Positions 9,821 to 57,449 of a stretch of DNA of 64,000 nt are shown one piece after another. The position numbers and the translations under genes were made by a program. Numbering within the stretch: position 1 is the stretch's first letter; each line of letters begins with the position of its first letter. Source of the DNA: Candidatus Poribacteria bacterium (GTDB taxonomy: Bacteria > Poribacteria > WGA-4E > WGA-3G); contig OY730443.1 in the NCBI GenBank assembly GCA_963422705.1, forward strand, positions 2,697,327-2,761,326. The letters run 5' to 3'. Under the pieces are notes generated by a model, which did not search any database, was not told where the DNA came from, and was given only the letters and a program-made list of their open reading frames with translations.

Positions 9821-9840
9821 AAAAAACCCCGAAAGGGGTT
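9821..9840 (-). terminator. Putative intrinsic terminator hairpin overlapping the dnaN -35 box
   Basis: aacccc-gaaa-ggggtt hairpin preceded by an A-run (T-tail on the minus strand). Confidence 0.4.
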
Positions 9841-9868
9841 GACAACTACGTGCTATTTAGGGTATAAT
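9839..9868 (+). promoter_or_regulatory. Consensus sigma70 promoter for the dnaN pair
   Basis: TTGACA-18bp-TATAAT. Confidence 0.8.
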
Positions 9869-9897
9869 CTGATAATCATTAATAGGAGAATTTGAGA

Positions 9898-11001
9898 ATG
9901 GAATTAACTTTTGATAAAAATGAACTTTTGCAATCGCTACAGCTCCTACAAGGCGTTGCGAGTGGACGTAATACCTTACCAATCCTGTCAAACGTCCTGA
10001 TTAACGCCAGTGCAGGCAATATCGAATGTATCGCAACCGACCTTGAAGTCGGCATCCGTATTAGCGTCGCAGGCACCATTCAGGAAGAGGGGGCCATCAC
10101 CGTTTCTGCCAAAAAACTGGCGGATATTGTCAAAGAACTGCCGTCGGAAAAAACGATAACGGTGGCAACTATCGCCAACGACAGGGTTGAAATCACCTGT
10201 GGTGACGGCGTTTATACGATTATCGGGCTCCCGGATGAAGAGTTCCCCCAACTCCCTACGGTAGATGGCGAGGCATTGAGCATTAACGGAGATACGCTGC
10301 GTTCAGTTATCCATAAAACAGAATTTGCTGCTTCCACGGAAGAAGTCCGATACTTCCTAAACGGACTCTATTTTAATCTGGGTGACGTAAAAACAGAGAT
10401 TGTCGCAACGGATGGGCGCCAACTCGCGCTTGCACACTGCGCCCCACTTGTTTCGGTTGAAAATAAGACAGGTTTTATTCTGCCCCTCAAAGCCGTCCGA
10501 GAAATCGCTAAAACCTTCGCGGATTCCGCGTCGGTGAGCATCGCCGTTTTTGAGAACCAGATTCTCTTTTCAGATGGAACCGCAACATTGACGACACGCT
10601 TAGTTGAAGGAGAGTATCCCCCCTATCAGAAAATTATTCCCGACGCCGCTGAAGGGCGCACTGTTGTCGACAGGGAAGCCATTCTCCGGGCAACCCGACG
10701 CGTCTCCTTATTGTCTAATCCCAAGAACTATGCTATCTGCTTAGAAATCGATTCCGAGAGTATTCGCGTCTCTGCGAAGACACCAGAGCTCGGTGAGGCG
10801 CATGAGACAGTCCAAGTCGAATCATCAACAGGTACTGTCCGAATCGGTTTTGACGCACGCCTGCTGATAGATGCTTTGTCACACATTGACACAGACTCAA
10901 TCGTCCTGGAATTCTCTGGGGAAGTTAATGCTGTCGTTTTTAAACCGACTGATAATGATGAACACATCTGTCTTATCATGCCGATGCGCCTACAATCCTA
11001 G
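9898..11001 (+). CDS. dnaN: DNA polymerase III beta sliding clamp, copy 1
   Basis: TLPILSNVLI, ATDLEVGI, RYFLNG, VATDGRQLA, RLVEGEYPPY, C-terminal LIMPMRL; RBS aggag. Confidence 0.95.
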   Translation: MELTFDKNELLQSLQLLQGVASGRNTLPILSNVLINASAGNIECIATDLEVGIRISVAGTIQEEGAITVSAKKLADIVKELPSEKTITVATIANDRVEITCGDGVYTIIGLPDEEFPQLPTVDGEALSINGDTLRSVIHKTEFAASTEEVRYFLNGLYFNLGDVKTEIVATDGRQLALAHCAPLVSVENKTGFILPLKAVREIAKTFADSASVSIAVFENQILFSDGTATLTTRLVEGEYPPYQKIIPDAAEGRTVVDREAILRATRRVSLLSNPKNYAICLEIDSESIRVSAKTPELGEAHETVQVESSTGTVRIGFDARLLIDALSHIDTDSIVLEFSGEVNAVVFKPTDNDEHICLIMPMRLQS

Positions 11002-11056
11002 AAGGAACGTTTAACTCGGTTTGGGATTAACGCTCCATTGATAGGAGAATTTGAGA

Positions 11057-12157
11057 ATGGAATTAACTTTCGATAAAGAAGAACTTTTAAAGTCCCTTCA
11101 GATATTACAAGGTGTCGCCAGTAGACGCACTACCTTGCCGATTCTGTCAAACGTCCTGATTAACGCCAGCGCAGGCAATATTGAATGTATCGCAACCGAC
11201 CTTGAAGTCGGTATCTGTATCAAGGTGAAAGGCACCATTCAGGATGAAGGCTCGATTACCGTCGCCGCTAAAAAATTGGGTGACATCGTCAAAGAATTGC
11301 CAGCAACCGAAACGATTACCCTGACAACCACTTCCAACAACCGGGTTGAAATTACGTGTGGTGCCGGCGTTTATACGATTATCGGGCTTCCTGATGAAGA
11401 ATTTCCGCAACTCCCCACGTTCGACATTGAGCCATTGAGTATTGATGGTGAAACCCTACGCGCCGTGCTGCGAAAAACCGAATTTGCGGCATCTACTGAG
11501 GAAGCCCGCTACTTTCTCAATGCCCTCTATTTCAACCTTGGCGCGGAGCGAACTGAAGTTGTCGCAACCGACACACATCAACTCGCTGTCGCATATTGTG
11601 AGCCGCTTGTCCCGCCTGAAAGTGCGACAGGTTTTATTGTTCCACTCAGGGCAGTTCGAGAAATCGCTAAAACCTTCGCGGATTCCGCGTCGGTGAGCAT
11701 CGCTGTTTTTGAGAACCAGATTCTCTTATCAGATGGAACGGCAACAGTGACGACGCGCTTGATAGAGGGGAACTATCCGCCGTATCAGAAAATTATCCCT
11801 GAATTTTCCGATGGACGCGCTGTTTTAAACAGGGAAGCCGTACTACGCGCTACAAAACGGGTTTCCCTTTTGTCTAACCCCAAAAACTATGCTATCTGCT
11901 TAGAAATCGATTCTGAGAACCTTCGCATCTCCGCGAAGACACCGGAGCTCGGTGAGGCGCATGAGACAGTCCAAGTCGAATCATCAACAGGTACTGTCCG
12001 AATCGGTTTTGACGCACGCTTCATCATAGATGCGCTATCGCACATTGAGACGGACGATATTGTGGTGGAATTCTCCGGGGAACTCACACCCGTCGCCGTG
12101 AAACCGACTGATGACGAACAGATATGCATCATCATGCCAATGCGCTTACAATCTTAG
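11057..12157 (+). CDS. dnaN: DNA polymerase III beta sliding clamp, copy 2
   Basis: Full-length paralog with the same RBS/start context (ataggagaatttgagaATG); VATDTHQLA, IIMPMRL. Confidence 0.93.
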   Translation: MELTFDKEELLKSLQILQGVASRRTTLPILSNVLINASAGNIECIATDLEVGICIKVKGTIQDEGSITVAAKKLGDIVKELPATETITLTTTSNNRVEITCGAGVYTIIGLPDEEFPQLPTFDIEPLSIDGETLRAVLRKTEFAASTEEARYFLNALYFNLGAERTEVVATDTHQLAVAYCEPLVPPESATGFIVPLRAVREIAKTFADSASVSIAVFENQILLSDGTATVTTRLIEGNYPPYQKIIPEFSDGRAVLNREAVLRATKRVSLLSNPKNYAICLEIDSENLRISAKTPELGEAHETVQVESSTGTVRIGFDARFIIDALSHIETDDIVVEFSGELTPVAVKPTDDEQICIIMPMRLQS

Positions 12158-16495: not shown

Positions 16496-16640
16496 CACAA
16501 TTTGCTAAAGCGTTATTGACTTCCTCCCACAGCTAAAGCAGTGGGATTCCTCCGTTCTTGTTTCAACGTTTACTGCCCCCAAACGAGGTCTTACACAAAC
16601 TCCACAAGCATTTTAACTCTCCGCCAGCCCGACGGCGAGG
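16496..16640 (-). ncRNA. TnpB omegaRNA (reRNA) scaffold plus predicted guide TAACGCTTTAGCAAATTGTG
   Basis: tnpB 3' end and right end ...gaatcccactgctttagctgtgggaggaagTCAA; the flanking bases 16515-16496 would form the guide. 5' boundary approximate. Confidence 0.7.
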
Positions 16641-17701
16641 TGCTTTAGATTTATCGCAGCGTTTTGGTCTCTGTCTATAGAAATACCACATGCACCGCAA
16701 TTATATTGGCGTTCTGATAACAATAACTTTTCTTTCTTGTGTCCACAACTGCTACACGTTTTACTTGAGGCATAGAATTGTGGTGCTTCTTTGATAGGTA
16801 TTGCAAGTATATCTGCTTTAGAGTTGAGCAGCGCGAGAAACCCACCTAACGCACTATCTGATAACGCTTTGGCAAGCTTCTTGTTCTTAAGCATGTTTGT
16901 AATCTTCAGCGTTTCTATTCCAATGACGCTTGCCATATTGACGATGTCTGTAGTCGCTTTATGGTGAGCGTCATTTCGGAGACAAGCGATTTTGTAATGG
17001 ATACGTTCTACTTTACGTTTTTGCTTATAATAGTTGTTAGATAGATACTCTTTCTTACTCAACGAACGTTGTTCACGCTTCAGTTTTTTCTCAAATCGTT
17101 TTAGCTGTCTCGGATTCAGATACTGTTTACCTGTATCAAGTGTAGCAAGCGCGTTGATACCTACGTCTATCCCGACAACAGGGAGTCCACGGGTGTCTCG
17201 TGGCGCAGTAGTTTTGCCTGTGCCAACGGTTATAGAGACGAACCAACGGTGTGCTGTCTTTGATACCGTCACCTTTTTAATCTCACCTTTGAATCGCAAC
17301 TTCTGAAATGTCCGCACCCATCCGATTTTAGGTAATCTAATACGCTTCCCTTCTGTTATTACCGAACCAGGGTGGGTGCTATACGATTGTCTGTCTCTCC
17401 TTCTCTTTTTCTTTGGAAATCTATTTTGCCCGCTTTTATACCGTGATATCGCATCACCAAAATGTTTTATCCCAAATAACGCAGCACGTTGATCTAACTC
17501 TTTCGTCCAATCTATTTCCTTTTTTGCGATATTAAAACGATTATTAAGTTCTTTCCAGTGGCGAGGTGTGTCTTGGTAATCCGACACAGCGTAATTGTAG
17601 GAAAAACGCGAATAACCGCATTGTTTAGAAAAGAATACAGACTGCTCGGCTGTCGTGTCTAATGCTATTTTATGTGATTTAAGCGCCATTGGAATGCTCA
17701 C
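16613..17701 (-). CDS. tnpB: RNA-guided endonuclease TnpB
   Basis: RuvC triad intact (GIDVG, IGIETL, DRDQNAA); Zn finger CSSC/CGAC; LPKIGWV. Confidence 0.95.
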   Translation of the reverse strand: MSIPMALKSHKIALDTTAEQSVFFSKQCGYSRFSYNYAVSDYQDTPRHWKELNNRFNIAKKEIDWTKELDQRAALFGIKHFGDAISRYKSGQNRFPKKKRRRDRQSYSTHPGSVITEGKRIRLPKIGWVRTFQKLRFKGEIKKVTVSKTAHRWFVSITVGTGKTTAPRDTRGLPVVGIDVGINALATLDTGKQYLNPRQLKRFEKKLKREQRSLSKKEYLSNNYYKQKRKVERIHYKIACLRNDAHHKATTDIVNMASVIGIETLKITNMLKNKKLAKALSDSALGGFLALLNSKADILAIPIKEAPQFYASSKTCSSCGHKKEKLLLSERQYNCGACGISIDRDQNAAINLKHLAVGLAES

Positions 17702-39059: not shown

Positions 39060-39492
39060 TTACGGTTCTAGCACAAAACATGCCACAGGTTTGAGAGTAT
39101 AGTCCGGTGCGAAAAAGAGCACCGACACAATGAAAAATAGGATAGCAAAAGGAATCTGAATTCTTGACATGATACACCTCATTTGTATCGGCGATATATC
39201 AGATATCTGGTTGTCGGAAAGATGCAACCGTGTCAGTTTTACCAACCCTTGTATCGGCGATATATCAGATATATCGTTGACGGAAAGAGACAAGTCTGTC
39301 AGATTGGTTGCAAACTCAAGTCCGGTTAGATTGCGAATTCCGGACTTACACGCAGAAAGCGTTGTTAAAGTCGCCATATCCGCCTGCGTAATGGCCGCCC
39401 CTGCAGCTTTGTCTAACGTATTCTCAAGGACACGGCGTAGATTCGTGTCGGGAATGTTCCAGAATGTCTATATTCCCATCCTGATTCACATC
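39060..39492 (-). pseudogene. Mosaic relic: dockerin fragment + LRR cap/repeats + orphan signal-peptide start
   Basis: DVNQDGNIDIL (39492-39459); IPDTNLRRVLE..LEFATNLT duplicating the upstream gene; MSRIQIPFAILFFIVSVLFF with its own RBS at 39170. Confidence 0.7.
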
Positions 39493-40163
39493 CCAGGTGG
39501 AGAATTGGTTTGGTTGCTGTATTCATCCAGATTATCTATCAATCCGGCAATTGGCGAGAAATCGGATATCTGGTTGTTGTCAAGCCACAAGTGTGTCAGT
39601 TTTATCAACCCTTTTAGCGCCGAGATATCTGATAGCTCGTTGGTTTCAAGCCCCAACGTTGTCAGTTTTACCAACCCTTTTAGCGGCGAGATATCAGATA
39701 TATCGTTGTAGCCAAGATACAACGTTTCCAGTTTTACCAACCCTTTTAGCGGCGAGATATCAGATAGCTGGTTATCGTGAAGCCCTAAGCCTGTGAGTTT
39801 TACTAACCCTTTTAGCGGCGAGATATCAGATATATCGTTGTAGCCAAGATACAACGTTTCCAGTTTTACCAACCCTTTTAGCGGCGAGATATCTAATAGC
39901 TCGTTGTTGTCAAGCCCCAACGTTTCCAGTTTTACCAACCCTTGTATCGGCGAGATATCAGATATATCGTTGACGGAAAGAGACAAGTCTGTCAGATTGG
40001 TTGCAAACTCAAGTCCGGTTAGATTGCGAATTCCGGACTTACACGCAGAAAGCGTTGTTAAAGTCGCCATATCCGCCTGCGTGATGGCCGCCCCTGCAGC
40101 TTTGTCTAACGTATTCTCAAGGGCATCGCGTAGCTTCGCGTCGGGAATCTGAATTCTTAACAT
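39486..40163 (-). CDS. Internalin-like leucine-rich repeat protein (probably degenerate)
   Basis: IPDAKLR cap, LTGLEFATNL, 22-aa repeats ISDISPLKGLVKLETLYLGYND encoded by 66-bp repeats. Confidence 0.85.
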   Translation of the reverse strand: MLRIQIPDAKLRDALENTLDKAAGAAITQADMATLTTLSACKSGIRNLTGLEFATNLTDLSLSVNDISDISPIQGLVKLETLGLDNNELLDISPLKGLVKLETLYLGYNDISDISPLKGLVKLTGLGLHDNQLSDISPLKGLVKLETLYLGYNDISDISPLKGLVKLTTLGLETNELSDISALKGLIKLTHLWLDNNQISDFSPIAGLIDNLDEYSNQTNSPPGM

Positions 40164-40637: not shown

Positions 40638-41867
40638 CTAGTACCCAAACCATTCCTTTATCCGCCGCATCAGTGAACGCAAAGCACCAGACTTTTGTCG
40701 TGATGCCTGTTCCTGTTGTTCACGCCGCAAAGCGCTGCTGTAAAGGACTAGTCCGGTACTTGTCGCATACATAGGATGATTCACCCTGTCTATAAGCCCT
40801 TTGAGTCCCTTCGGGTAACCGATTTGCACGCGGAGGGGTAAGATTTCGGATGCGAATTCTGTTATACCGTCCATGAGTGCCGTTCCGCCTGTCAGTATCA
40901 ACCCGCCCGGAAGTTGCGTGTCGCCGATTTCATCCATAATGCCTTCTAAGATATCTTCGATGCGGTATTCGATGATTTCGGCGAGTTCAATCCTGTCTAT
41001 AAAACGGGTGCGGTTGTCCCCTTGTTGTATTGGGATTGGCTCTGCGTTATCTGCTTCCACCCATTCTGCCCAGGCACATCCACGGTTAATTTTCAGTTCT
41101 TCAGCTTCAGGAAGGGTGATTTTTAGGTATTGGGCGATGTCGCCGGTGACGTGTTTTCCACCGACAGGCAGGACAACCGCGTGTCGGATAGCATCTCCTT
41201 TGTAGACAATAATTTCAGTGGTGCCGGCGCCAATGTCTGCCAATGCGATACCGACTTCGCGTTCTGCGTGCGATACGACGGCTTCCGTTGATGCTAACGG
41301 AGCAGCGACAAGCGCCTCCACTTCCTGCACCCCCGCTTTTTCTATACTATTCAGTAAATTTTGAGTTGCGGTTACTCCGCCGGTAATGATATAGACGTCA
41401 GCTTCCAATCGCGCGCCGGACATCCCCAGAGGTTCCTTTATTCCTTCCTGGTTGTCAATAGCAAAATTCTGCTCAAGGACATGCAGAATCTCTTGTCCGG
41501 CGGGCACAGAAATAGCGCGTGCCGCTGCCAGCACGCGAGCAATATCGTCTTCCGAAATCGCGGGTACACTCGCGGAAACAACACCGTGTGATGTTTGCCC
41601 GAAAAGATGTTCACCGGAAACACTAACACAGATGTTATCTATGTTAACTCCTGACATGAGTTCAGCGGCAGCAATCGCTTTGCGAATAGATGCGGCTGTC
41701 TGACTAATATCAACCACAATGCCTCTTCGCACCCCTTCCGAAGGAGCATGCCCAACGCCGATAATTTCAACGTCGCCTCTGTATTGTCCCGGGGACGTGT
41801 TCCCCACGACGACAGAAATCTTGTTTGAGCCAATATCTAAGCCGGCGATAATACGTTCATTAGCCAT
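40638..41867 (-). CDS. ftsA: Cell division protein FtsA
   Basis: GLDIGSNKI, GVRRGIVVDI, DIGAGTT, GGKHVTGDI, LTGGTA, C-terminal amphipathic helix. Confidence 0.95.
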   Translation of the reverse strand: MANERIIAGLDIGSNKISVVVGNTSPGQYRGDVEIIGVGHAPSEGVRRGIVVDISQTAASIRKAIAAAELMSGVNIDNICVSVSGEHLFGQTSHGVVSASVPAISEDDIARVLAAARAISVPAGQEILHVLEQNFAIDNQEGIKEPLGMSGARLEADVYIITGGVTATQNLLNSIEKAGVQEVEALVAAPLASTEAVVSHAEREVGIALADIGAGTTEIIVYKGDAIRHAVVLPVGGKHVTGDIAQYLKITLPEAEELKINRGCAWAEWVEADNAEPIPIQQGDNRTRFIDRIELAEIIEYRIEDILEGIMDEIGDTQLPGGLILTGGTALMDGITEFASEILPLRVQIGYPKGLKGLIDRVNHPMYATSTGLVLYSSALRREQQEQASRQKSGALRSLMRRIKEWFGY

Positions 41868-41869
41868 GA

Positions 41870-42901
41870 CTAGTTGTCTCTCCCCCAGTAGAGTGCATCT
41901 TCAAACCTTGCGTCTAAATACATTTGTCCCCCTCTCGTCGTCGTGTCGATTGGTGCACTGTGATTATCTCTATGTTTCAAGAATAGCGCGATATGATGGA
42001 GCCCAGTGTCTACCGCGTCTTTTGCAATCCACGCCTGCGCTGCGATGCCACTAATCTCCAATTTAACCTTGTGTTCCTCACTGGCATCAATCGTCACAAT
42101 CTGCTTGGCAAGCTCCGGTTCGCGAAGCAAGGCGGTGCTAAAAATACGCAAACCTAACTTCACCGCGGGGATTTGTAGTGCACCCCCAGGTGCCGGAAAC
42201 ACATCGCCTTCTGCAATAAGGACAGGCATGCGGGCATGCTTTTCAACAGCTTCCGGGACTTTTGAATTGCCACTCGGGGCGACTTCAAGGGGTTTTCTAG
42301 GGAATTGCCCACGCTTATTAAACCAATACCGCTTTCGCAGCGGAAATTCGTCTATTACAGATTCTAACACGTATCCATCTTTATCTATCAAAAAAAAATC
42401 AGTATGGGCACTAGCGCGCACGCCACTCGGGGGGCAACGGTATTCAAGCAGGGCAAACTGTTCACGCTCTGTCACCCGGATAGTAAACATCCGCCTCATC
42501 AAATGCTTTGATATGTAGGCATCCTTAATGTAACTGAGATTCTCCTTGAGATATAGCGCCGTCTGTTCTTCAGATTCCGTAAAGATATTATCGAGATTTT
42601 CGGCTAAAACATCATAGATGTGTACTTTTGTATAGTGTTTATTACCGTAAACTTCCAACGAGACGTATTCAACGTTGAAAAAGGATAGCACCGTCTTACC
42701 GATGAATGCCAAAGTAACGACAACAGAAATCCCGACGATGAACCGCCGCCACAGATAGACAGTTGAATTTCTCTGCTGCAGTCTCCGGGTTTTTAACGGA
42801 TTCGGTTGACTGGCGTCCTTTATCGGGCGCGGTTGAGTCTTGCCACGCCCGTCGGATGACTGCTGGGTACGCCTTTGCTGCGCGTGCGAAAGTACTTTCA
42901 T
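41870..42901 (-). CDS. ftsQ: Cell division protein FtsQ/DivIB
   Basis: Single TM, POTRA-like LEVYGNKHY..IRVTERE, YLDARF; located before ftsA. Confidence 0.8.
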   Translation of the reverse strand: MKVLSHAQQRRTQQSSDGRGKTQPRPIKDASQPNPLKTRRLQQRNSTVYLWRRFIVGISVVVTLAFIGKTVLSFFNVEYVSLEVYGNKHYTKVHIYDVLAENLDNIFTESEEQTALYLKENLSYIKDAYISKHLMRRMFTIRVTEREQFALLEYRCPPSGVRASAHTDFFLIDKDGYVLESVIDEFPLRKRYWFNKRGQFPRKPLEVAPSGNSKVPEAVEKHARMPVLIAEGDVFPAPGGALQIPAVKLGLRIFSTALLREPELAKQIVTIDASEEHKVKLEISGIAAQAWIAKDAVDTGLHHIALFLKHRDNHSAPIDTTTRGGQMYLDARFEDALYWGRDN

Positions 42902-42962
42902 TTTCTTCCTTTTTCCCTTTCGCCCTAATTTTTCTGACAGTTTTGTCGAGAGTGCAGATTCA

Positions 42963-44363
42963 TTACGAAGGACTCCGCGTCGACGTCGAAGCCAAAAGGG
43001 ATTCCAAAAACTGGCGGCCGACTTTACTGATATCGCCTGCGCCGAGGGTGATGACGATATCCCCGGATTGCGTTATTTGAGTGAGATATTGCGTAATTTC
43101 ATCGGTATCCGGCATGTAAATGACGTGCCGGTGGCCATGTGCCCGGATTGCCTCTGCAAGGTTTTCTGCTGTCACGTTTTCAATCGGGGCCTCGCCAGCA
43201 CCATAAATAGCGGTAACAATCAGCACATCGGCTTGATAAAAAGAGCGGCAGAACTCGTCTGCTAAATCTCTGACTCGCTGGTATCGGTGCGGCTGAAAGA
43301 CTGCCACGATGCGTCGTTTATATCCTTCCCGTGCGCCGTTGAGTGCGGCTTTTAATTTCGCTGGATTATGGGCATAATCATCAACAACGATGATATTATT
43401 AACTTCACCGAGCACTTCAAAACGTCTATGTACGCCTTGAAAGGATTCAAGGTTATCGCGAATCTGTTCAAAAGGAATGTCCAATTCCAATCCGACGGCT
43501 ATCGCTGCTAAAGAGTTGGCGATGTTATGTCGCCCCGGCATTTTGAGGTGGACGCTCCCGAGCGCACCCGCTACGCGTAAATTTTGCGATGCGCGCACGC
43601 GATAATGCGATGTTGGCCCCTTCACAGTGATTTCTTCTGCAATGATGTCCGCACCTGTTTCAAGCCCGTAGGTAAGATACCGCTTTTCAATCCGTGGAAT
43701 GAATTTCTGAATGTTTTCGTTATCTAAGCAGAGCACCGCGGTACCGTAAAACGGGACTTTATTCGCAAATTTAAGGAACGTTTCGCCGATGTCATCGACG
43801 CTGTCGTAATAGTCAAGATGATCGGCATCGACAGAAGTGATAACAGCAATTGTCGGGTAGAACATCTCAATCGAACCGTATGCCTCGTCTGCTTCGATTA
43901 CCATAACATCGCCTTCTCCGGTTCGCGCATGAGTACCGTCGACTAATTTACCCCCAAGCACAACGGCCGGGTCCAACCGCTTCAATACGGCTGCCATCAT
44001 CGCTGTTGTCGTTGTCTTCCCGTGTGTCCCACTGACAGCAACACTATAGCGCATTCGGGTAATCTCATTAAGCATTTCTGCGCCCCTGACGATAGGGATT
44101 TTCCGTGCAGTGGCAGCAACGAGTTCAGGATTATCCGGCGGAATCGCGGGCGATTTAACCACGACATCAGCACCATTAAGATGCTCCGCAGCGTGATTGT
44201 AGTATATATTTGCGCCACGGGCACGCAGGTGCTCTGTTATCTCTGAACACTGCAAATCGGAGCCCGTCACTTGAAAACCGAGTTCAAGTAGAATTTCAGC
44301 GATACCGCTGAGGCCGGCACCACCGATGCCGGTTAAATGGATATGTTGCGTTTTTCCAAACAT
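42963..44363 (-). CDS. murC: UDP-N-acetylmuramate--L-alanine ligase
   Basis: GIGGAGLSGIA, GTHGKTTT, IEADE, DHLD, DDYAHNP, FQPHRY. Confidence 0.95.
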   Translation of the reverse strand: MFGKTQHIHLTGIGGAGLSGIAEILLELGFQVTGSDLQCSEITEHLRARGANIYYNHAAEHLNGADVVVKSPAIPPDNPELVAATARKIPIVRGAEMLNEITRMRYSVAVSGTHGKTTTTAMMAAVLKRLDPAVVLGGKLVDGTHARTGEGDVMVIEADEAYGSIEMFYPTIAVITSVDADHLDYYDSVDDIGETFLKFANKVPFYGTAVLCLDNENIQKFIPRIEKRYLTYGLETGADIIAEEITVKGPTSHYRVRASQNLRVAGALGSVHLKMPGRHNIANSLAAIAVGLELDIPFEQIRDNLESFQGVHRRFEVLGEVNNIIVVDDYAHNPAKLKAALNGAREGYKRRIVAVFQPHRYQRVRDLADEFCRSFYQADVLIVTAIYGAGEAPIENVTAENLAEAIRAHGHRHVIYMPDTDEITQYLTQITQSGDIVITLGAGDISKVGRQFLESLLASTSTRSPS

Positions 44364-44460
44364 TTTGTATTCACGCTCGCTGTTCCGTTTAGTTTTGTTA
44401 GGTTTTCAAGGCAAATGCGCGGGATAATAACCCCATCAGAGCGCTTTGATGCCCTCTCCA

Positions 44461-45582
44461 TCACAATTGTGCCAGAATAGAATTAGCAATTTCCTCACTC
44501 GCTTTTGGTTTCCCGATTGCCCGGCTTGCGTCTGCCATCGCTTGATGTGTTTTGGCATCAGTAGCGATGCGGAGCAGGTGGCTAACGAACTCGTCAGTTG
44601 TAAAGGCGCCCTGCTCAAGCACGATTGCGGCACCAGTGGCGGCAACAGTGTCCGCATTTAATACCTGATTGTTCCCAGCTTGAGCAGGTAAAGGAATGAA
44701 AATCGTGGGGATACCACACGCCGTTACCTCAGAAACTGTCATTCCGCCAGCCCTACACACCATAACATCGGCGATACTATAGACTTCTTCGATTGCATCA
44801 AAGAAAGGCTGCACCCGATGCGGCAAGCCGGGTTCGAGTTTTTGATATGCAACCTGAACCATTTCTGCGTCCGCGGCCCCGGTTTGGTGGATAATTTGTA
44901 GACAATCAAGTCCGTTTCTATGAGCCTGATGAACTAAGAGAGGCAGGCTCTCAATGACGCTCTGATTAATCGCGTGGGCCCCTTGACTTCCCCCCATGAC
45001 AAACACCGTTTTCCGATTAGGGCACAATCCGAGTTTCTGATAGCTTGCAGCGGTTCGTTGACAATCCGCGATTGCGGGCCGAATCGGGTTGCCTGTTACA
45101 GAAACAATATTTTCAGGGAACCTCGCCGCGGCAGGTTCCAAAGCGAGATAGGCAGCTACAGCCCAGCGCGCCAAAATCGCGTTCGTCACGCCAACGGACG
45201 CATTCTGTTCCTGCACCGCGACAGGAATTTTGCGGATAACCCCAGCAAAAAGCACGGGGCCAGAGACATATCCCCCCGTTCCGACAACAAAATCTGGTGC
45301 GAGTTCCCTCATGTAACCCAACGATTGCTGCACGCCGCGCGCAGCTTTCCAAAGCACCGGAAGCCATTGAAAAGTGATTCGACGCGGAAATCCTTCAACA
45401 GGGATAGGTAAAAAACGAAACCCGTGCTGGGGAACGAGCTTCGCCTCCAAACGTTTCGCACCGCCGATGAAGATGATATTAAGCTTTGTGTCTAATCGTT
45501 TTAGTGCTTGGGCAATACCGATGGCAGGGTAGATATGCCCACCGGTGCCCCCACCTGAAATCACTACCGTGCGGTTTTTCAT
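44461..45582 (-). CDS. murG: Lipid II GlcNAc transferase
   Basis: GGGTGGHIYP, GGYVSGP, EQN, GNPIR, GGSQGA. Confidence 0.95.
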   Translation of the reverse strand: MKNRTVVISGGGTGGHIYPAIGIAQALKRLDTKLNIIFIGGAKRLEAKLVPQHGFRFLPIPVEGFPRRITFQWLPVLWKAARGVQQSLGYMRELAPDFVVGTGGYVSGPVLFAGVIRKIPVAVQEQNASVGVTNAILARWAVAAYLALEPAAARFPENIVSVTGNPIRPAIADCQRTAASYQKLGLCPNRKTVFVMGGSQGAHAINQSVIESLPLLVHQAHRNGLDCLQIIHQTGAADAEMVQVAYQKLEPGLPHRVQPFFDAIEEVYSIADVMVCRAGGMTVSEVTACGIPTIFIPLPAQAGNNQVLNADTVAATGAAIVLEQGAFTTDEFVSHLLRIATDAKTHQAMADASRAIGKPKASEEIANSILAQL

Positions 45583-45631
45583 CTATGGCACCAAAAACAG
45601 TTCTAAAGTCGATAAATAGGCACCGGAGGCT

Positions 45632-46888
45632 TCAGCCCCGGCCTGACTTATTTTTTTGTAAACGAAAGCGTGAAATATTCAGGAGAATCCCGACACTGAG
45701 TAAGCTCAACACAATTGAAGAGCCGCCATAACTGATAAATGGCAACGTAATCCCTTTCGTAGGTAAGACACCTGTCACAACGCCAATGTTGATGAACGCC
45801 TGTAAACCGATAAGCGTTGTCAGCCCAACAGAGAACAACGCACCAAATAAATCTTCAACATCACGAGCAATGTGTAACCCACGCCACACAAATAACATGA
45901 AAAGGAGCGTTACACAGGCGGTACCGAAAAACCCAAATTCTTCGCCCAGGATAGCGAAAATGAAATCGGTGTGTGGATACGGCAGATGCCCCACTTTCGC
46001 AACGCTGTTATCAATACCTGCCCCGAAAAAGCCACCCCAGCCGAGGGCTTTGAGCGAGTGTTCCAATTGGTAGTTTGCCCCCTCCGGGGATTTCCAAAGG
46101 GCGATGTAATCCAGGAATCGTTTCAACCGGTACGGATTTCGAAGGATGAGGAAGCTTAGCACCCCGACACCAGCCCCCCCTAGCAGCAGCCCTTGCCAGA
46201 TGCGAATACCACCCACAAATAAAACGAGACAAACTGATGCAGCCAATAGAAGTGCAGAGCCAAAGTCTGGCTGCTGTGCAACGAGCCCGAAAGCAGCACC
46301 TAGAATCAGCACATTCGGGAGAATCCCATTGAAAAAACTTTTCGCCTTTTGTGGATTCCGACTGATAAATGTTGCTACATGGATGATGAGCGCGATTTTG
46401 GCGAATTCTACCGGTTGAAAATTGAACGGGAATCCGGGTAACCTAATCCAACGGTTAAATCGTCCACCGCCCGCCCCCTGCACGCTGACACTAAAAAATG
46501 GCACAAATACTAACAATAACCCGACAAACGCTACAATCAAAATTGTGGTGGAATACCGCGCATAAAACTGATACGGTATGTAAGCAGTTAGGAACATACC
46601 GAGAAAGCCGATGGTACATGCAATCATGTGTATCCGCAAATACTGGTAGCTGTCACCGTTATATTCCCTTGAAGACAGGAGGTGGCCAGAACTATAAACC
46701 ATCAATATGCCCACCGCTACAAGGAGAGAGGTAAGGACAATGAGAACAGTGTCCATTTTTTTAGGCTGCTGGGTTTCACCAATGGGTGCATCTGCTTCCC
46801 CGAATTGTCCATGTTCAGGGGCATTTCTACCGCGACGTGAATGTTCCGTGGCGTATATATTCCCCCCATTTTTACGATTGAAGCGCAT
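45632..46888 (-). CDS. ftsW: Peptidoglycan polymerase FtsW
   Basis: MVYSS, RWI, FQPVEFAK, QPDFG, HTDFIF, KGITLPFISYGGSS; start uncertain. Confidence 0.93.
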   Translation of the reverse strand: MRFNRKNGGNIYATEHSRRGRNAPEHGQFGEADAPIGETQQPKKMDTVLIVLTSLLVAVGILMVYSSGHLLSSREYNGDSYQYLRIHMIACTIGFLGMFLTAYIPYQFYARYSTTILIVAFVGLLLVFVPFFSVSVQGAGGGRFNRWIRLPGFPFNFQPVEFAKIALIIHVATFISRNPQKAKSFFNGILPNVLILGAAFGLVAQQPDFGSALLLAASVCLVLFVGGIRIWQGLLLGGAGVGVLSFLILRNPYRLKRFLDYIALWKSPEGANYQLEHSLKALGWGGFFGAGIDNSVAKVGHLPYPHTDFIFAILGEEFGFFGTACVTLLFMLFVWRGLHIARDVEDLFGALFSVGLTTLIGLQAFINIGVVTGVLPTKGITLPFISYGGSSIVLSLLSVGILLNISRFRLQKNKSGRG

Positions 46889-48362
46889 AAACTGCCTCTT
46901 TAAATGCGTTTCCACGCGCTTTATAGTCAGTATACATATCAAAACTGGCATTTGCCGGGGATAATAGCACGACATCGCCCGGGCCAGAATGTTGGTATGC
47001 CACACACACCGCTTCCCCCATTGTTGTGACAGGCAAAATGTCTGTGTGCGCCTCAAGCGCCTTTTGGATACGTTGTGTGTGAATGCCTAGCATAACCACC
47101 TTCTTCACTTTTTTCTTTACCAATGCAAGGAGCGGGGTATAGTCATTTCCTTTATCGTACCCACCCATAATGAGGAGAACGGTTTTTCTCTCATCGGGCG
47201 CAGGGATTGATTCAAGCGCAGATTTCACAGAATCTACATTCGTCGCTTTTGAATCGTCAATGAATTGAACCTCGTTCACTGTGAGAACCTGCTCAAATGC
47301 ATGCTTGAACGCCGGGTGCGCCCGGTTGAGCCCCTGAACCCCTGTCCGGATTTGCGACGGGGTGACGCCAAGGATTAGTCCTACCGCAGCGGCAGCAAGT
47401 GTATTCCGCACATTGTGCGCCCCCGGAAGAGGAATATCCTTTACATAACATAAAAATTGCGGTTTTTTGTCTGGTACCGCAGTGTATGCCGTGGCCGAGG
47501 CAATATTCCCAAAAAGGCACAAATTTCCGTTTTCATCATTTTGAAGATAGGTTCCTTGACGCCGGGCCCCTCCGCCAGCCGGAACCTCCTCCGGGCACGA
47601 AGAAGGATGAAAATAGATAGGGCGCGCCCGTATCATCGTCGCGAAGCCGGCAACCCGTTTATCGCAAGCGTTTAGGACTATCCAATCCGTCGCGTTCTGG
47701 TTCGCGCATATCTTCTCTTTCGCCTTGGCATAGGCGGACATCGTGCCATGCCTATCCAAATGGTCGGGAGAGATATTTAGGACGACGCTCACGCTTGGCC
47801 GGAACGTGACAGTGCTTTCAAGTTGGAAACTGCTCGCTTCAAGGACAACGATGTCTTTGCATGTCAGATTCTGCACCTCGGCTGCCAAAGGTACCCCGAT
47901 GTTTCCTGCAACACAGACATTCTCAAACCGCCTGCCCGCTTCGAGAATCGCCGCTGTCAAAAGCGTTGTTGTTGACTTCCCCTTTGTTCCAGTAATCGCG
48001 ACGATGGGGGCAGGACACACACTCGCGGCGAACTCCAATTCGCCGAGAATCGGAATCCCTTGTGAACGCGCCTGGCAGAGAATCGGAATATCCAACGGTA
48101 CACCGGGCGACACAACAATCAGTGCTGCCTCTACTATACATGCCTCCGGGTGTCCCCCGAGATATAAGGTAACCGTTCGTTGATGACTTATCTGCTCAAG
48201 CCGCTCAATTTCTGCAGATAAGTCCGCGCTATCACGGGAATCTGTCACTGTCACTGTCGCGCCGAGTGCAACAAGTAATTTTGTGACAGCCACGCCGCTC
48301 CGATGCAATCCAAAAACGGTTACGTTTTTCCCGTTGAAAATATCCGGGTTTCGCATTCCCAC
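46872..48362 (-). CDS. murD: UDP-MurNAc-L-Ala--D-Glu ligase
   Basis: SPGVP, TGTKGKSTT, LEASSFQL, DHLDRH, DSKATN, LLSPA. Confidence 0.95.
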   Translation of the reverse strand: MGMRNPDIFNGKNVTVFGLHRSGVAVTKLLVALGATVTVTDSRDSADLSAEIERLEQISHQRTVTLYLGGHPEACIVEAALIVVSPGVPLDIPILCQARSQGIPILGELEFAASVCPAPIVAITGTKGKSTTTLLTAAILEAGRRFENVCVAGNIGVPLAAEVQNLTCKDIVVLEASSFQLESTVTFRPSVSVVLNISPDHLDRHGTMSAYAKAKEKICANQNATDWIVLNACDKRVAGFATMIRARPIYFHPSSCPEEVPAGGGARRQGTYLQNDENGNLCLFGNIASATAYTAVPDKKPQFLCYVKDIPLPGAHNVRNTLAAAAVGLILGVTPSQIRTGVQGLNRAHPAFKHAFEQVLTVNEVQFIDDSKATNVDSVKSALESIPAPDERKTVLLIMGGYDKGNDYTPLLALVKKKVKKVVMLGIHTQRIQKALEAHTDILPVTTMGEAVCVAYQHSGPGDVVLLSPANASFDMYTDYKARGNAFKEAVYALQS

Positions 48363-48471
48363 ACCTCAAAAACGTTCAAAACTGTAAAACGCCTAAATCT
48401 CTAGAGGGGCCAAAGATTTGATACCGGTGGCAACCGTTCCAGCTTTAACAGACTTCTAAAGTTGCCTGAGT

Positions 48472-49581
48472 TCACCGCAATTTAACGGTGCTTAAGGCAA
48501 CCAGGACAAGAATAAATCCGACAATCCAGAACCGGATAACCACTTTGGATTCCTTCCAACCGGATAATAGGAAATGGTAATGGATGGGCGACATCTTAAA
48601 GACGCGTTTGCCAAAGGTTCGGAAGGACCAGACTTGTATGATAACCGATAGCGCCTCTGCAACGAAAATCGCGCCAACGATAACTAGCAGAAATTCCTGC
48701 TTTATGAGGAGTGCTACAGTTCCAAGCGTCGCGCCTAGGGCAAGGGAACCCGTATCCCCCATAAAAACCTGGGCGGGATGGGAATTGTACCATAAGAAAC
48801 CCAACCCTGCACCCACCAGGGCAGAACAAAAAATCGCAGTTACCTCACCGGCTACCGGAAAATGAAGAATGTTCAGGTAATTCGCTATCTGATGATGGCT
48901 TGCCATATAACCTAGCGCCCCCAATGTCCCCGCAACAAATATTGTGCAACCGATTGCCAAGCCGTCCATTCCATCTGTGAGGTTCACCGCATTTGACGTC
49001 CCCACGATGACTAAAGTAGCAAATGGAATAAACAGAAAACCCAACTCTGGTTGCACTGTTTTGAAAAAGGGGAGGGTGAGCGAAGTGCGTGTCGCTACAT
49101 CGCCCGTCGCTACAGGGCCCCACTGGTAAAGATATCCCGCGATTGCCAACGCGCCCAAAGTCTGAAGCCCAATCTTATGCCAGCCGCGAAGCCCTAAAGA
49201 CTGCTGTTTAATGAGTTTACAATAATCATCAAGGAAACCGAGCCCACCAAACCAAAGCGTTGTCAAAATCATCAGATAGAGGAACGATTGATCTAACCTG
49301 CCCCAGAATACAACAGATACCAAAATGGAGACAATGATGAGGATGCCCCCCATTGTCGGGGTACCCGCTTTGTTATCCCATTCCTTGGAGCTCGGCCCAT
49401 CTTCAATCAGGTACTCGCCGATACGCAGCTGCTTTAGGCGCGCTATCACCGATGGGCCTAAAACTAATGATATGATAAGTGCTCCGGTAGTCGCGGAAAT
49501 CACGCGAAAACTGATATAGCGGAAGATGTTGAACGGTGAAAATGTGTCGACTAACCCTTCAAAAAGGAGATGATAAAGCAT
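48472..49581 (-). CDS. mraY: Phospho-N-acetylmuramoyl-pentapeptide transferase
   Basis: KAGTPTMGG, DDY, NAVNLTDGMDGL, FMGDTGSL. Confidence 0.95.
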   Translation of the reverse strand: MLYHLLFEGLVDTFSPFNIFRYISFRVISATTGALIISLVLGPSVIARLKQLRIGEYLIEDGPSSKEWDNKAGTPTMGGILIIVSILVSVVFWGRLDQSFLYLMILTTLWFGGLGFLDDYCKLIKQQSLGLRGWHKIGLQTLGALAIAGYLYQWGPVATGDVATRTSLTLPFFKTVQPELGFLFIPFATLVIVGTSNAVNLTDGMDGLAIGCTIFVAGTLGALGYMASHHQIANYLNILHFPVAGEVTAIFCSALVGAGLGFLWYNSHPAQVFMGDTGSLALGATLGTVALLIKQEFLLVIVGAIFVAEALSVIIQVWSFRTFGKRVFKMSPIHYHFLLSGWKESKVVIRFWIVGFILVLVALSTVKLR

Positions 49582-49657
49582 TTTAAATTTCAAATCCTGA
49601 GCAAATTTCTAAAATTTCAAGATTTTTGATTTTAGAACTGTCACTCATTTACAGCCG

Positions 49658-50968
49658 TTATAGCTTTGCTCCATCTGCCTGCAATTTAGCCATCCCAGCC
49701 CCGGCATGGCTCAGCAGATTTGTTTCATAAGAATAGGTTAAACCGTTTTTTTCCTCATGAACTTGGAATGCTAAATCGATGAGTTGCGCGAGGAGCCCTG
49801 AAAATTCAATGCCGTTGTGCTCCCAGAGATAAAAACTGAATGAACCGGGAAGTGTATTAATTTCATTGACGTAAACCTGTTCCGATTCATCCACTAAGAA
49901 ATCAATACGTGCAATCCCCGTGCAGTCCAGTGCCTGAAAAGTTCGCATAGCGAGTTCTTGAATATGTAACGTCAATTTTTGCGAAATGGGTGCAGGAATT
50001 TTTCGCTGGGAGCCTACCATACCGGATGGGGATAGTAATGCCTTCTCATTACTCTTATCCTTGCTATCATGCCCTTTCGTCGCGGTAGGGACCGTTTCTA
50101 CGGCGCCATCCGGAACTGCAACTGCACTATCTGCTCCAACCGCTTCGTTTTTATGGATGTATTTATCTTCAAAGGTTAGAAACGCGGCTTCTGTCATCGG
50201 TTGTTCACAAACCGAAGCTGTTAACCGCTCGGCGCCCATCACAGCGCAGTTAATTTCAGTGGGTTTTTTTACGGCTTTCTCGGCAAGGATTCTGCGGCAA
50301 TACTGCTCAGCGAGTTGCATGGCGGGGAGGAATTCTTCGTTATTTTTTGCCCGGCTGACACCGATACTCGAACCACTGAGCGCCGGTTTGACGAAAACCG
50401 GGTAACCAAGGGATGCCTTGACTTCTTTCAGAATATCAGAACGAAACGCGTTCCACTGAGGTTTTGTCCACGACAAATAGGGAACAACCGGAAGGTGATT
50501 CTCCTTGAGAACCGCTTTCATCATGATTTTATCCATGCCGACAGCGGAGCCGATAACACCCGCACCGACATAAGGCAGATTCATCAATTCCAGGAGCCCT
50601 TGAAGTGTACCATCTTCGCCATGTGAGCCGTGTATCGCAGGAAATACAACATCAACGTTGAGTGTGCGCGGTGTCCGCCGGCGAAACCAGGTGGTTTTTC
50701 CTTTTGGGACGACGCTGAACTTTGGGGCACTACCTAATTCAATAGCCACCACTTCAAAATCGGATGGGCGAGGGAGATACCCCTTTGTGAAAGTACTCAG
50801 TTGGCCCAGCTCATCCCCGGTTAGCCATTCGCCACGCTTTGTTACGTAAATCGGGGTAACATGATGCGTTTCTTTCAAAGCAGCACAGAGCTGCTGTGCT
50901 GTTACGATGGACACTTCGTGTTCAGGCGAACGTCCACCAAAAATAAGGGCTACGTTATGTCGTTGCAT
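49658..50968 (-). CDS. ddl: D-alanine--D-alanine ligase
   Basis: GGRSPEHEVS, HGSHGEDG, GMDK, VKP..GSSIG, FEDKY, RIDF, NEINTLPG. Confidence 0.92.
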   Translation of the reverse strand: MQRHNVALIFGGRSPEHEVSIVTAQQLCAALKETHHVTPIYVTKRGEWLTGDELGQLSTFTKGYLPRPSDFEVVAIELGSAPKFSVVPKGKTTWFRRRTPRTLNVDVVFPAIHGSHGEDGTLQGLLELMNLPYVGAGVIGSAVGMDKIMMKAVLKENHLPVVPYLSWTKPQWNAFRSDILKEVKASLGYPVFVKPALSGSSIGVSRAKNNEEFLPAMQLAEQYCRRILAEKAVKKPTEINCAVMGAERLTASVCEQPMTEAAFLTFEDKYIHKNEAVGADSAVAVPDGAVETVPTATKGHDSKDKSNEKALLSPSGMVGSQRKIPAPISQKLTLHIQELAMRTFQALDCTGIARIDFLVDESEQVYVNEINTLPGSFSFYLWEHNGIEFSGLLAQLIDLAFQVHEEKNGLTYSYETNLLSHAGAGMAKLQADGAKL

Positions 50969-51059
50969 TATCCTACTTACCTTCCTTTTGGTAGCGTTTT
51001 TGGGATAAAATCTATTGATGCGAGCCAAGACAAAGGGGGTGAACGGGGCGCACGAAATC

Positions 51060-52688
51060 CTATTCGTTGTAGGTATCGGGCAAATCATTCTCAAAAAGGA
51101 CTATATCCCCGGGCCTCAGCAGTTTTGCTAAATATTGTTTGACTTCAGCAAGGTTTAGGGCAATAATGAGTTGTTCGTGCGGATAATTAGCGCTGTTCAG
51201 CCCATCTACAATCGGTGTCGTTTGTGTGGGGCCGACTAAGATAACCAAGTCACATACTTCGGCAGCATGTATCCCGAAGCGTCTATTTTCCTCATATTCC
51301 TTTTCTCCGAGTTCTACCATGCCCGGTGTTACCAACACCTTTTTGCCCCCGGCTGTCTCACGGCCGCGGCTGATATCATCGAGGACTTCTAGCGCGGCTT
51401 TTGCACCGACGGGATTGGCGTTGAAACTATCGTCAATAATCGTTACATTGCCGGCACCGGCTATCAATTGCAAGCGGTGCGGAACGGATTCTAAATTTGC
51501 CACAGCAGAACGTATCTCTTCTAACGTCATCCCGCATTCGGATGCCACTGTCATCGCCGCCAGAATGTTGGAGACGTTATGTCTCCCTAAAAGTGGGCTC
51601 TGAATTTCAATGTGTTGTTCCTGATTGTGGACAGTAAATGCCAATCCGTTCTCGGTTTGCTGAATGTTGGTTGCGTTCATGACATCTGTCAATTCGGCGG
51701 GTATTGGATTAATGCCGTATCGGAGCACCTTTCTGTTTTCCGTGGTATCCGCCAGTTTTGCGCAAATTTCGTTATCACAGTTAAATACAGCAATGCCAGT
51801 CACGGGGAGTGATTCAATGAGTTCATATTTTCCTTTTGTGATATTCTCAACGCTCTTAAATCGTTCGAGGTGCTGTAACCCGACAGCAGTAAGTACGCCG
51901 ATTTCAGGGCTTACCAGCTCGCATAATTCTTTGATGTCGCCGCGCCGATAAGCACCCATTTCAACGATAAATATTTCGTGTTCCTCAGCTAATGTCCCAC
52001 GGATAACTTTGCAGATACCCATCGGGGTGTTATAGCTGTCCGGCGTCATTAACGTGTTAAATTTTTCAGACAGAACCTGTTTTAAAATAGATTTGGTACT
52101 CGTCTTGCCGTAGCTGCCAGTAATCCCGATGACTTTGGGCCCCAACGTTTTTATACGTCTTTTAGCGGAAAGCAGATATCCCCAGTTAATAGCGCGTTCG
52201 AGTGGATAGATAAGCAGGGTGGCTATTATTAAATTAACTATCGATACTTCGCTAAACAGAAAGAGCCCAACTCGCCACGGATGCCCCTTGGCAATCAGGA
52301 TGAGACTCACGGATAGTACCACAAGTAGACAAATTGAAAGACAGAATAGACGTTTTGCGCGTGCTGTGTAAACAAGAGGCTTTTTTGCCTCCACTTTTTT
52401 CTTTTTAAAACTCCTATAAAGCTGTAAGCTCGCCCAAGTGAGACAGAGTCCCCCAAAGAGCCATGTCTGCTGATATCCGGGATAGATAAGGGTAAAACCT
52501 AACAGACATCCAATTGCGAGAATCTCGGCGACGTCAAAGCAGCTTTTCAAATGTGCATGCACCCACTTGACGTAACGCGCCGTTTTGTAACCATCAAGCT
52601 GAAGGATATGGAGTCCATCGTTTGTTCGAACGATGGCTCGGAGCAGACAGGCGACGATTGTGAGATAAAACAGTGTATTATATACCAT
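51060..52688 (-). CDS. murF: MurF-type ligase with an N-terminal multi-TM domain
   Basis: About 160-aa hydrophobic N-terminus, then GITGSYGKTSTK, SYNTPMG, VEMG, QHLERF, DDSFNANP, PGMVELG, FENDLP. Confidence 0.85.
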   Translation of the reverse strand: MVYNTLFYLTIVACLLRAIVRTNDGLHILQLDGYKTARYVKWVHAHLKSCFDVAEILAIGCLLGFTLIYPGYQQTWLFGGLCLTWASLQLYRSFKKKKVEAKKPLVYTARAKRLFCLSICLLVVLSVSLILIAKGHPWRVGLFLFSEVSIVNLIIATLLIYPLERAINWGYLLSAKRRIKTLGPKVIGITGSYGKTSTKSILKQVLSEKFNTLMTPDSYNTPMGICKVIRGTLAEEHEIFIVEMGAYRRGDIKELCELVSPEIGVLTAVGLQHLERFKSVENITKGKYELIESLPVTGIAVFNCDNEICAKLADTTENRKVLRYGINPIPAELTDVMNATNIQQTENGLAFTVHNQEQHIEIQSPLLGRHNVSNILAAMTVASECGMTLEEIRSAVANLESVPHRLQLIAGAGNVTIIDDSFNANPVGAKAALEVLDDISRGRETAGGKKVLVTPGMVELGEKEYEENRRFGIHAAEVCDLVILVGPTQTTPIVDGLNSANYPHEQLIIALNLAEVKQYLAKLLRPGDIVLFENDLPDTYNE

Positions 52689-52714
52689 TTTTTTTCTGTA
52701 TCAGCTGCTCCATC

Positions 52715-53506
52715 TTATCGCCGTTTCAATTTCCGCTCTGGCATTCCCAAGAAACTGGCTACAATCCTACAGAATTGCGGAAATTCGTCAAGGTAAGAGA
52801 AGTGCCCTGCCCCTTTTAGTACAACCAATCCGGCATCCGGTATTTCCTTTTCCATGATTTTTCCGTAAGAGACAGGGGTATCTGTATCTATCTCACCCCA
52901 AATTAACAGCGCGGGTACGACTATGCGTGCCAAGAGTGGACGTAAGTCTTCGTTGACGATTTTCACAAGCGTTGCGCGCATTGGCCCGGCGTTCTGATAA
53001 TCCGTGGAACCCATGTGACGGGATACCGTATTTGCGAGATATGCACCATATTTGCCGCATCGTCGTAGTACTTTGCCAATTTTCGCGAGGCCGATTCGAA
53101 AATAATATCGCGTCGTTCGCCGCGGTTTAATGCCTGCGCTGTCAACAAGGATGAGTTTATTAACTTTTTCAGGATATTCTGCTCCGAGGATGATTGAGAT
53201 TCTTCCGCCAAAAGAGTGCCCAATGATGTGCGCTTTTGAGATATTCAGCTTCTCAAAAAAAGTTTTAACACAGTGCGCGTAATCGTCAGTGCACCACGCT
53301 ATAGACGGGATTTCACTCCGCCCGAATCCCGGAAGATCCAGGGCATAAACTTTATGCGACGCTGCAAGCCATTCAAAAACAGGCTTAAAACTGGCGGCTT
53401 CCCCACCCCACCCATGCAGAAGGACAACCACATCACCTTCTCCGGCGACTTGATATGCAATTTTGAGATTGTTAACTTCTATGTTTTGATAGTTGCTCTC
53501 AAACAT
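52715..53506 (-). CDS. Alpha/beta hydrolase
   Basis: LHGWG, DLPGFG, GHSFGG nucleophile elbow, WGEIDTD, GAGHF. Confidence 0.92.
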   Translation of the reverse strand: MFESNYQNIEVNNLKIAYQVAGEGDVVVLLHGWGGEAASFKPVFEWLAASHKVYALDLPGFGRSEIPSIAWCTDDYAHCVKTFFEKLNISKAHIIGHSFGGRISIILGAEYPEKVNKLILVDSAGIKPRRTTRYYFRIGLAKIGKVLRRCGKYGAYLANTVSRHMGSTDYQNAGPMRATLVKIVNEDLRPLLARIVVPALLIWGEIDTDTPVSYGKIMEKEIPDAGLVVLKGAGHFSYLDEFPQFCRIVASFLGMPERKLKRR

Positions 53507-53537
53507 AGCGATTTTGTCCGGAGCGAATAGAATTTCG

Positions 53538-55013: not shown

Positions 55014-55045
55014 CAGTTTTCTTCGGGATAGGCACCGAATTGTAC

Positions 55046-57203: not shown

Positions 57204-57449
57204 ATTGGCTCATCCATAGCGTGCTGCTCGTACATTCGCCTAGTTCTAACATAGCCAGTACACGCTATATAACCCGTTTCATCTTTTCTCGTTCTAAATT
57301 CTAAACGCTAAACGTGGCAATCAAGATACACTTTTTTATTTATCAGAGATTGCGCAACATTCTCATGCAAAATAAGGGGATGAGATAATTACCAGAGTTG
57401 CCTAGCATGCCGGCACAAAATCTATTCCTGCCCATCCAAGTCAAACGTG

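Follow-up and report, generated by a model that had tools for sequence, protein, structure and literature searches.

Most bacteria carry one dnaN gene, and its product, the beta clamp, is usually a single, highly conserved hub whose peptide pocket is a drug target. The locus described here raises the question of what a bacterium does with two such genes placed one directly behind the other. They lie in a stretch of 64,000 nucleotides (nt) from the sponge-associated Candidatus Poribacteria bacterium (assembly GCA_963422705.1, contig OY730443.1, positions 2,697,327 to 2,761,326 of the forward strand), the whole of which is called the window below; coordinates are those of the window unless a genome or locus is named, G000 is the genome of the window and G001 that of a sister species in the same genus. 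An earlier note, made from the sequence alone, had drawn attention to the pair and proposed that its two pockets might sort partner proteins or that one copy might resist a clamp-targeting natural product or phage protein. Judged by its domains, its equivalog-level scores and its matches to solved clamps, the pair is real and functional. The most likely reading, to which we assign a probability of roughly 0.55, is that the two genes form an operon for two working clamps, with a shift of the pocket that would alter partner preference.

Organisation of the dnaN pair

Two open reading frames (ORFs) on the forward strand, 9892..11001 and 11051..12157, have likely ATG starts at 9898 and 11057. The genes and the signals around them, with lengths in amino acids (aa), are:

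9839..9868 (+), predicted sigma-70-type promoter: TTGACA at 9839-9844, an 18-nt spacer and TATAAT at 9863-9868
9884..9888 (+), AGGAG ribosome-binding site of copy 1, read from the sequence, 9 nt upstream of the ATG
9898..11001 (+), dnaN copy 1, 367 aa, with pocket hairpin ATDGRQL, like the canonical copies of relatives
11002..11056 (+), intergenic spacer of 55 nt, homologous to the G001 spacer and containing the second AGGAG at 11043-11047
11057..12157 (+), dnaN copy 2, 366 aa, with pocket hairpin ATDTHQL, the faster-evolving copy

All three beta-clamp Pfam domains are present in order in each protein (PF00712, PF02767 and PF02768; E-values 1e-21 to 5e-34), the TIGR00663 dnaN equivalog scores are 288.3 bits for copy 1 and 282.9 bits for copy 2 (cut-off 137.65), and both copies match solved clamps over their full length (best E-values 3e-59 and 8e-58, range 1e-45 to 1e-59). 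The earlier description of two intact dnaN paralogs is thus borne out by reading frames, domains and scores alike. The proteins are identical at 294 of 369 positions (80%), with one gap, and they are the only dnaN matches in G000, a closed 4.0-Mb genome in one contig that is 95% complete. With canonical DnaN (E. coli, 1MMI-type structures; single residues are numbered as in E. coli) they share the three-domain fold, the length, R24, the R152-Y153-x-L155 loop, the T172/L177 hairpin, P242 and the C-terminal MPMRL pocket strand; they differ from it in being two copies in a predicted operon, without dnaA-dnaN-recF linkage, and in disagreeing with one another at six pocket positions that are listed below.

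The predicted promoter agrees with the consensus at 12 of 12 positions, and a homologous TTGACA/TATAAT pair also stands upstream of the dnaN pair of G001. Promoter-like sites in the region number three against 3.5 expected in shuffles, so that only the perfect match is notable. A search of the 55-nt spacer for a promoter-like or terminator-like site found none. As the earlier note had it, both genes follow a single consensus promoter sequence. The shared translation context is equally as described: AGGAG lies 9 nt ahead of each ATG, in a 30-nt stretch including the start codon that is identical at the two genes (9882-9911 and 11041-11070). From these signals, copies 1 and 2 are probably co-transcribed. 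A CCCC-GAAA-GGGG hairpin (9825-9840) adjoins the -35 box and has a terminator-like score on the minus strand.

Origin of the duplication

Ten runs contain the stretch at half or more of the sampled words. None of them is listed as RNA, although X7 may be. The junction between the two genes is bridged in runs X2 and X6 by one 856-nt contig each and in X7 by a 1788-nt contig, with 0-1 differences, and the X7 contig spans copy 1 and the start of copy 2. In X2 and X6 the short contigs break off at 10498-10544 and 10786-10860, which coincide exactly with the identical 47-nt and 75-nt stretches of the copies, and two contigs in each of these runs fit two places of the stretch. Among 40 relatives, G001 has the same tandem pair with a homologous promoter and a homologous spacer, which places a single duplication before the two species diverged. 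Together with clamp counts across the family (see below), the G001 pair and the bridging contigs establish that the duplication is neither specific to one strain nor an artefact, the outcomes that the earlier note had named as fatal to its proposal. A scan of metagenomes with copy 2 for further members of the genus gave nothing above 70% identity (16 loci), and the spacers between tandem copies in other genera could not be aligned by eye with that of G000. In the G001 spacer (L034:7101-7181), a segment of 21 nt with the ribosome-binding site and start region is repeated in tandem.

Gene conversion between the copies

In a tree of 77 clamp domains (80 matches minus three partial ones), the four clamp sequences of the window's genus form one clade (support 99), within which the G001 copies pair with each other (support 99) and not with their positional partners. 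Nucleotide sites follow the same pattern, 68 informative sites grouping the copies by genome, 19 by position and 14 in the crossed arrangement. The longest run of identical codons between paralogs is 27 in G000 (aa 297-325, p = 1e-4) and 56 in G001 (aa 110-167, p = 2e-4), and the comparisons between orthologs have no such runs (p = 0.75 and 0.54). Synonymous difference between the G000 paralogs is 0.17-0.23 in the tracts and up to 0.9 elsewhere, and between the G001 paralogs it ranges from 0.00 to 0.75; over both genomes it is 0.00-0.23 in tracts and 0.5-0.9 outside them. Near-identical tracts amid saturated synonymous divergence, in paralogs that cluster by genome, are the result of concerted evolution by gene conversion. 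Two stretches within the genes are identical between the copies:

10498..10544 in copy 1 = 11657..11703 in copy 2 (+), 47-nt identical stretch, a gene-conversion tract, found with an exact-match script
10786..10860 in copy 1 = 11945..12019 in copy 2 (+), 75-nt identical stretch, the core of the longest tract (aa 297-321)

Outside the tracts in both genomes lie the hairpin (aa 168-200), the linker (228-276) and the C-terminal strands (326-367). A repeat search of the window returned one 300-nt family, at 79% identity. The earlier note had asked whether the copies form two stable clades; in the window's genus they do not, each genome's copies clustering together because gene conversion has made parts of the two genes alike. 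Genus g3, by comparison, has tandem copies at this locus that constitute two well-supported clades with fixed, different pockets.

Selection and evolutionary rate

Both copies are under purifying selection. Measured against positional orthologs, the ratio of nonsynonymous to synonymous divergence (dN/dS) is 0.096 for copy 1 and 0.106 for copy 2, with synonymous sites saturated, and the neutral evolution of copy 2 that the earlier note had envisaged as a refutation is not seen. Copy 2 evolves about 1.7 times faster than copy 1: unique substitutions number 34-37 against 18-22 in G000 (three outgroups, p 0.027-0.051) and 25-26 against 8-14 in G001 (p 0.002-0.078), and copy 1 has the shorter tree branch of the two. 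When changes are polarised, the ratio of nonsynonymous to synonymous substitutions in G000 is 30:19 for copy 2 and 17:16 for copy 1 (p = 0.50), and in G001 it is 22:10 and 7:20 respectively (p = 0.0016). The pair thus displays gene conversion and selection opposed to each other within an essential gene.

The peptide pocket and dimer interface

The pocket was defined as 24 positions, part of them taken from PMC11621423, which names R152, Y154, L155, G174, H175, D243, R246, V247 and M362. The hairpin of the pocket is encoded at:

10405..10425 (+), pocket beta-hairpin codons of copy 1, ATDGRQL (E. coli 171-177)
11564..11584 (+), pocket beta-hairpin codons of copy 2, ATDTHQL

The motifs quoted in the earlier note are found where it placed them, ATDGRQL from 10405 and ATDTHQL from 11564, as are RYFLNG against RYFLNA and GEVNAV against GELTPV. 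The copies disagree in the pocket (copy 1/copy 2) at 174 G/T, 175 R/H, 323 L/F, 344 V/L, 346 A/P and 360 L/I, and both keep R152, Y153, L155, T172, L177, P242 and M362-P-M-R-L366. By its residues, neither copy can be taken as the plain ancestral form: at the hairpin copy 1 agrees with the canonical copies of relatives, and at 344 and 346 copy 2 does. Copy-specific residues common to G000 and G001 occur at 175 (R/H), 323 (L/F), 345 (N/T), 348 (V/A), 237 and 258; two of these six positions belong to the pocket and three lie at most one residue from a pocket position (p = 0.022).

Across the wider group, the 17 clamp sequences of families f2-f4 (from 16 genomes, G037 giving two) have an almost invariant pocket. 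Among the 44 non-fused copies of f1, the family of the window, variation is greatest at pocket positions, nine of the 24 being among the 40 most over-variable of 366 columns (p = 3.5e-4, a family value that overstates the case because the relatives are not independent) and several others adjoining these. The pocket is therefore a hotspot of paralog divergence across the family, unlike within the G000 pair. At the dimer interface, 18 of the 19 positions considered are identical between the copies, and heterodimers of copy 1 and copy 2 are plausible for this reason.

Function of the two clamps

We propose that a tandem duplication at the family's conserved dnaN locus took place before the two known species of the genus split, and that both copies would since have been kept by purifying selection as gene conversion repeatedly overwrote parts of them. 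Copy 1, with the canonical hairpin signature of the family, is probably the main replicative clamp. Both proteins would be made from one transcript and would assemble into homodimers and, through the near-identical interface, into heterodimers, and the altered pocket may shift the preference of each ring or half-ring for clamp-binding proteins. One cleft per clamp dimer is reported to be enough for viability in E. coli (PMC3022782), and mixed rings are therefore conceivable. Candidate partners are DnaE, the delta subunit, mismatch repair proteins, ligase and Pol I, and would not include translesion polymerases.

A number of observations weigh against partner sorting. The earlier note was right that pocket residues differ, at the six positions given above, but divergence in the pocket, at 6 of 24 positions, does not stand out from that of the other 342, of which 68 differ (Fisher p = 0.60), and the pocket is therefore no divergence hotspot in this pair; the core hydrophobic pocket and the MPMRL motif are the same in both copies. 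His at 175 is also found in single-copy clamps (E. coli, G033 and G039), so that the pocket variation in single-copy relatives which the note named as a refutation does exist for this residue in G033 and G039, but otherwise the pocket of single-copy relatives is nearly invariant. The copy-specific signal is thin, at six positions against four with a crossed pattern, and the lists of interface and pocket positions are in part assumed. The division into converted and unconverted parts is descriptive because the segments were picked after the profiles had been seen: in the converted parts (729 nt) a tree that joins copy 1 to its ortholog is rejected (approximately unbiased (AU) test, p = 9e-13), and over the 372 nt that conversion has spared in both genomes the four sequences of the genus collapse to a polytomy in which neither grouping is rejected (p = 0.19 and 0.26). 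Finally, G000 has one dnaE and one delta subunit, with no partner duplicated, and the closed, 95%-complete genome contains no match to Y-family (PF00817) or B-family (PF00136) polymerases; a division of labour between replication and translesion synthesis is therefore out, and we rejected it.

Plain redundancy is a strong and serious rival, although on balance we consider it unlikely. The two genes would then supply interchangeable clamps for the sake of dosage or robustness, with conversion slowing their divergence and the pocket differences neutral. One promoter with identical translation signals for both genes, the extensive conversion tracts, the ordinary level of pocket divergence, the His175 of single-copy clamps and the unduplicated partners all agree with this, and so does the extra Bacillus clamp gene dnaN-2, whose deletion reportedly leaves no phenotype (PMC3290774). 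Unlike dosage pairs that remain nearly identical, however, these copies differ at 20% of residues with saturated synonymous sites outside the tracts; moreover, the downstream copy is the faster in both species, near-pocket copy-specific residues are common to both, and sister genera have stable paralog clades with fixed, different pockets. Very unlikely, in our view, is that one copy is an insensitive spare, comparable to GriR, against a clamp-targeting natural product, phage protein or toxin in the chemically and phage-rich habitat of a sponge. In its favour, the pocket of the family's paralogs is a hotspot of change that includes the gating Met362, and a Met-to-Leu change at the gating site lowers the griselimycin affinity of the Rickettsia clamp (PMC11621423). 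Both G000 copies keep Met362 and the hydrophobic pocket, however, nonribosomal peptide synthetase (NRPS) or polyketide synthase (PKS) domains were found in none of 48 ORFs scanned out of 54 in the window, neither the clamps nor their three upstream neighbours have a PADLOC match, and variant pockets are fixed within clades and not turning over. Because there is no biosynthetic cluster nearby and no third, housekeeping dnaN elsewhere in G000, the GriR-type resistance suggested earlier lacks its defining context and is not upheld. That copy 2 is decaying, or that the tandem arrangement is an assembly artefact, is hardly credible: the faster rate of copy 2 would suit decay, but its frame is open over the full length with dN/dS near 0.1 and an equivalog-level score, independent contigs bridge the junction and G001 has the same pair.

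Beyond partner sorting by the pair alone, a multi-clamp system may be imagined, which we regard as quite unlikely. After leaving the dnaA operon, dnaN would have multiplied into partner-specific rings; asymmetric heterodimers in G000 would hold two partners at once, as a hard-wired toolbelt, and fusions of clamps to an extracytoplasmic function (ECF) sigma factor or to FtsZ in relatives would link transcription initiation or division proteins with DNA by way of a sliding ring. Crenarchaeota have a heterotrimeric PCNA1/2/3 whose subunits prefer different partners. It offers a working analogy, in that paralogous subunits of one ring have different partners, but PCNA is a trimer, another member of the fold family and an obligate heteromer, whereas the DnaN heterodimer is inferred only.

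A family with several clamps in nearly every genome and divergence centred on the pocket is a natural experiment on the splitting of a hub among partners, which could reveal the pocket changes that a working clamp tolerates. The G000 pair is its simplest case (two subunits, one promoter, one DnaE and one delta) and is tractable for the study of heterodimeric clamps in vitro.

Comparison with known extra clamps

Extra dnaN copies are already known. GriR and related copies lie inside griselimycin or mycoplanecin gene clusters (PMC11621423; PMC10817943); like them, the Poribacteria pair adds a second dnaN to a genome and shows changes in the peptide or drug pocket, but it lies at the family's conserved dnaN locus, has no nearby biosynthetic cluster or separate housekeeping copy, and keeps the gating Met. 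Bacillus dnaN-2, of unknown role, has a locus separate from that of dnaN-1, to which it is about 40% similar (PMC3290774). It too is an extra clamp paralog in a genome with one replicative machinery, whereas the Poribacteria copies are 80% identical, adjacent and exchanging sequence by gene conversion. A literature search of main texts found nothing on Poribacterial clamp paralogs, on sigma-clamp fusions or on clamp paralogs with gene conversion.

Clamp paralogs and fusions across the phylum

At least two clamp matches are present in 94 of 98 f1 genomes (range 1-6), compared to 15 of 52 genomes of other families, where 36 have one match and one has none; the count used the clamp N-terminal domain, whose matches need not equal copy numbers. 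Within the smaller set of relatives, the extra matches outside f1 are 24-28% identical, with the exception of one tandem pair in G037. Among the clamp paralogs that have radiated throughout the family in these Poribacteria, the G000 pair stands at the mild end. Elsewhere, G017 has three tandem dnaN genes (locus L128, G017:C21:21880-32458) about 6 kb downstream of an extra dnaE-like gene, and a separate 144-kb contig of G007 (C2) carries a 34%-identical clamp together with an extra dnaE-like gene.

Fusions of clamp paralogs with an ECF sigma factor or with FtsZ occur in some relatives, though not in G000:

L115:2374-4107 (+), L123:2986-4728 (-), L124:2263-4107 (+) and L113:2350-4104 (+), sigma-clamp fusions, genera g3 and g5
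L112:2041-4161 (-) and L116:2059-4140 (-), with a partial one in L145, clamp-FtsZ fusions, genus g2

In g3 and g5 the sigma factor (sigma-70 regions 2 and 4) is N-terminal to the clamp in one frame of 570-615 aa, and the sigma-clamp copies form one clade with strongly altered pockets. A Pfam scan found the fusion domains in six of six fusions, the four from g3 and g5 having sigma-70 regions 2 and 4. All of the 120 best database matches listed for the sigma-clamp carry both clamp and sigma-70 domains, and the only source name among those matches is 'DNA polymerase III beta subunit'. The g2 proteins (694-710 aa) have the FtsZ GTPase domain and FtsZ_C directly after a C-terminal MPMKL, the frame ending with FtsZ_C (residue 710 of a 710-aa frame). 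Thirteen database clusters of 687-710 aa have all five domains of the clamp-FtsZ arrangement; ordinary Poribacterial FtsZ is about 430-436 aa long.

Genomic context

The neighbours of the pair are a DUF6785 membrane protein, a 3-hydroxyisobutyrate-dehydrogenase-like gene and nadC. None of dnaA, recF and gyrB lies alongside, as the earlier note had remarked, and the single dnaA of G000 is about 455 kb away (G000:C1:3162919); the usual dnaA-dnaN(-recF) order, typical of DnaN but not defining for it, is absent from G000. In f1, dnaA and dnaN are more than 100 kb apart in every genome that has both on one contig, and in families f2 and f3 they are 1-3 kb apart. None of the five f4 genomes has a Bac_DnaA match. 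The f1 locus keeps the order DUF6785 (-), dnaN, 3-hydroxyisobutyrate dehydrogenase (-), nadC (-), with at least one flanking gene of that order in 42 of 114 loci searched, from genera g1, g2, g3 and g5.

We also looked for partner genes beside dnaN in the relatives, and rejected the idea that such genes are kept there, the extra genes being of leucine-rich repeat (LRR), WD40 and Fic type and not replication proteins. The locus has gained Fic, LRR-dockerin and large WD40-repeat genes in several of them (L034:2146-3270, L034:8629-11019, L075:8459-10348 and L096:8905-13074). Eukaryote-like repeat proteins are typical of sponge symbionts, and the genes gained at the locus resemble such proteins.

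Elsewhere in the window, 16613-17701 (-) is an IS605-type TnpB-like ORF with OrfB_IS605 and Cas12f1-like TNB domains. A cell-wall and division cluster occupies 40638-58433 (-), with mraW, ftsI, mur ligases, ddl, mraY, ftsW, murG and ftsA. It stops at ftsA without ftsZ behind it, the next gene encoding an LRR protein (39486-40163), and the sole FtsZ match of G000 is found about 2.2 Mb from the cluster, at G000:C1:494688.

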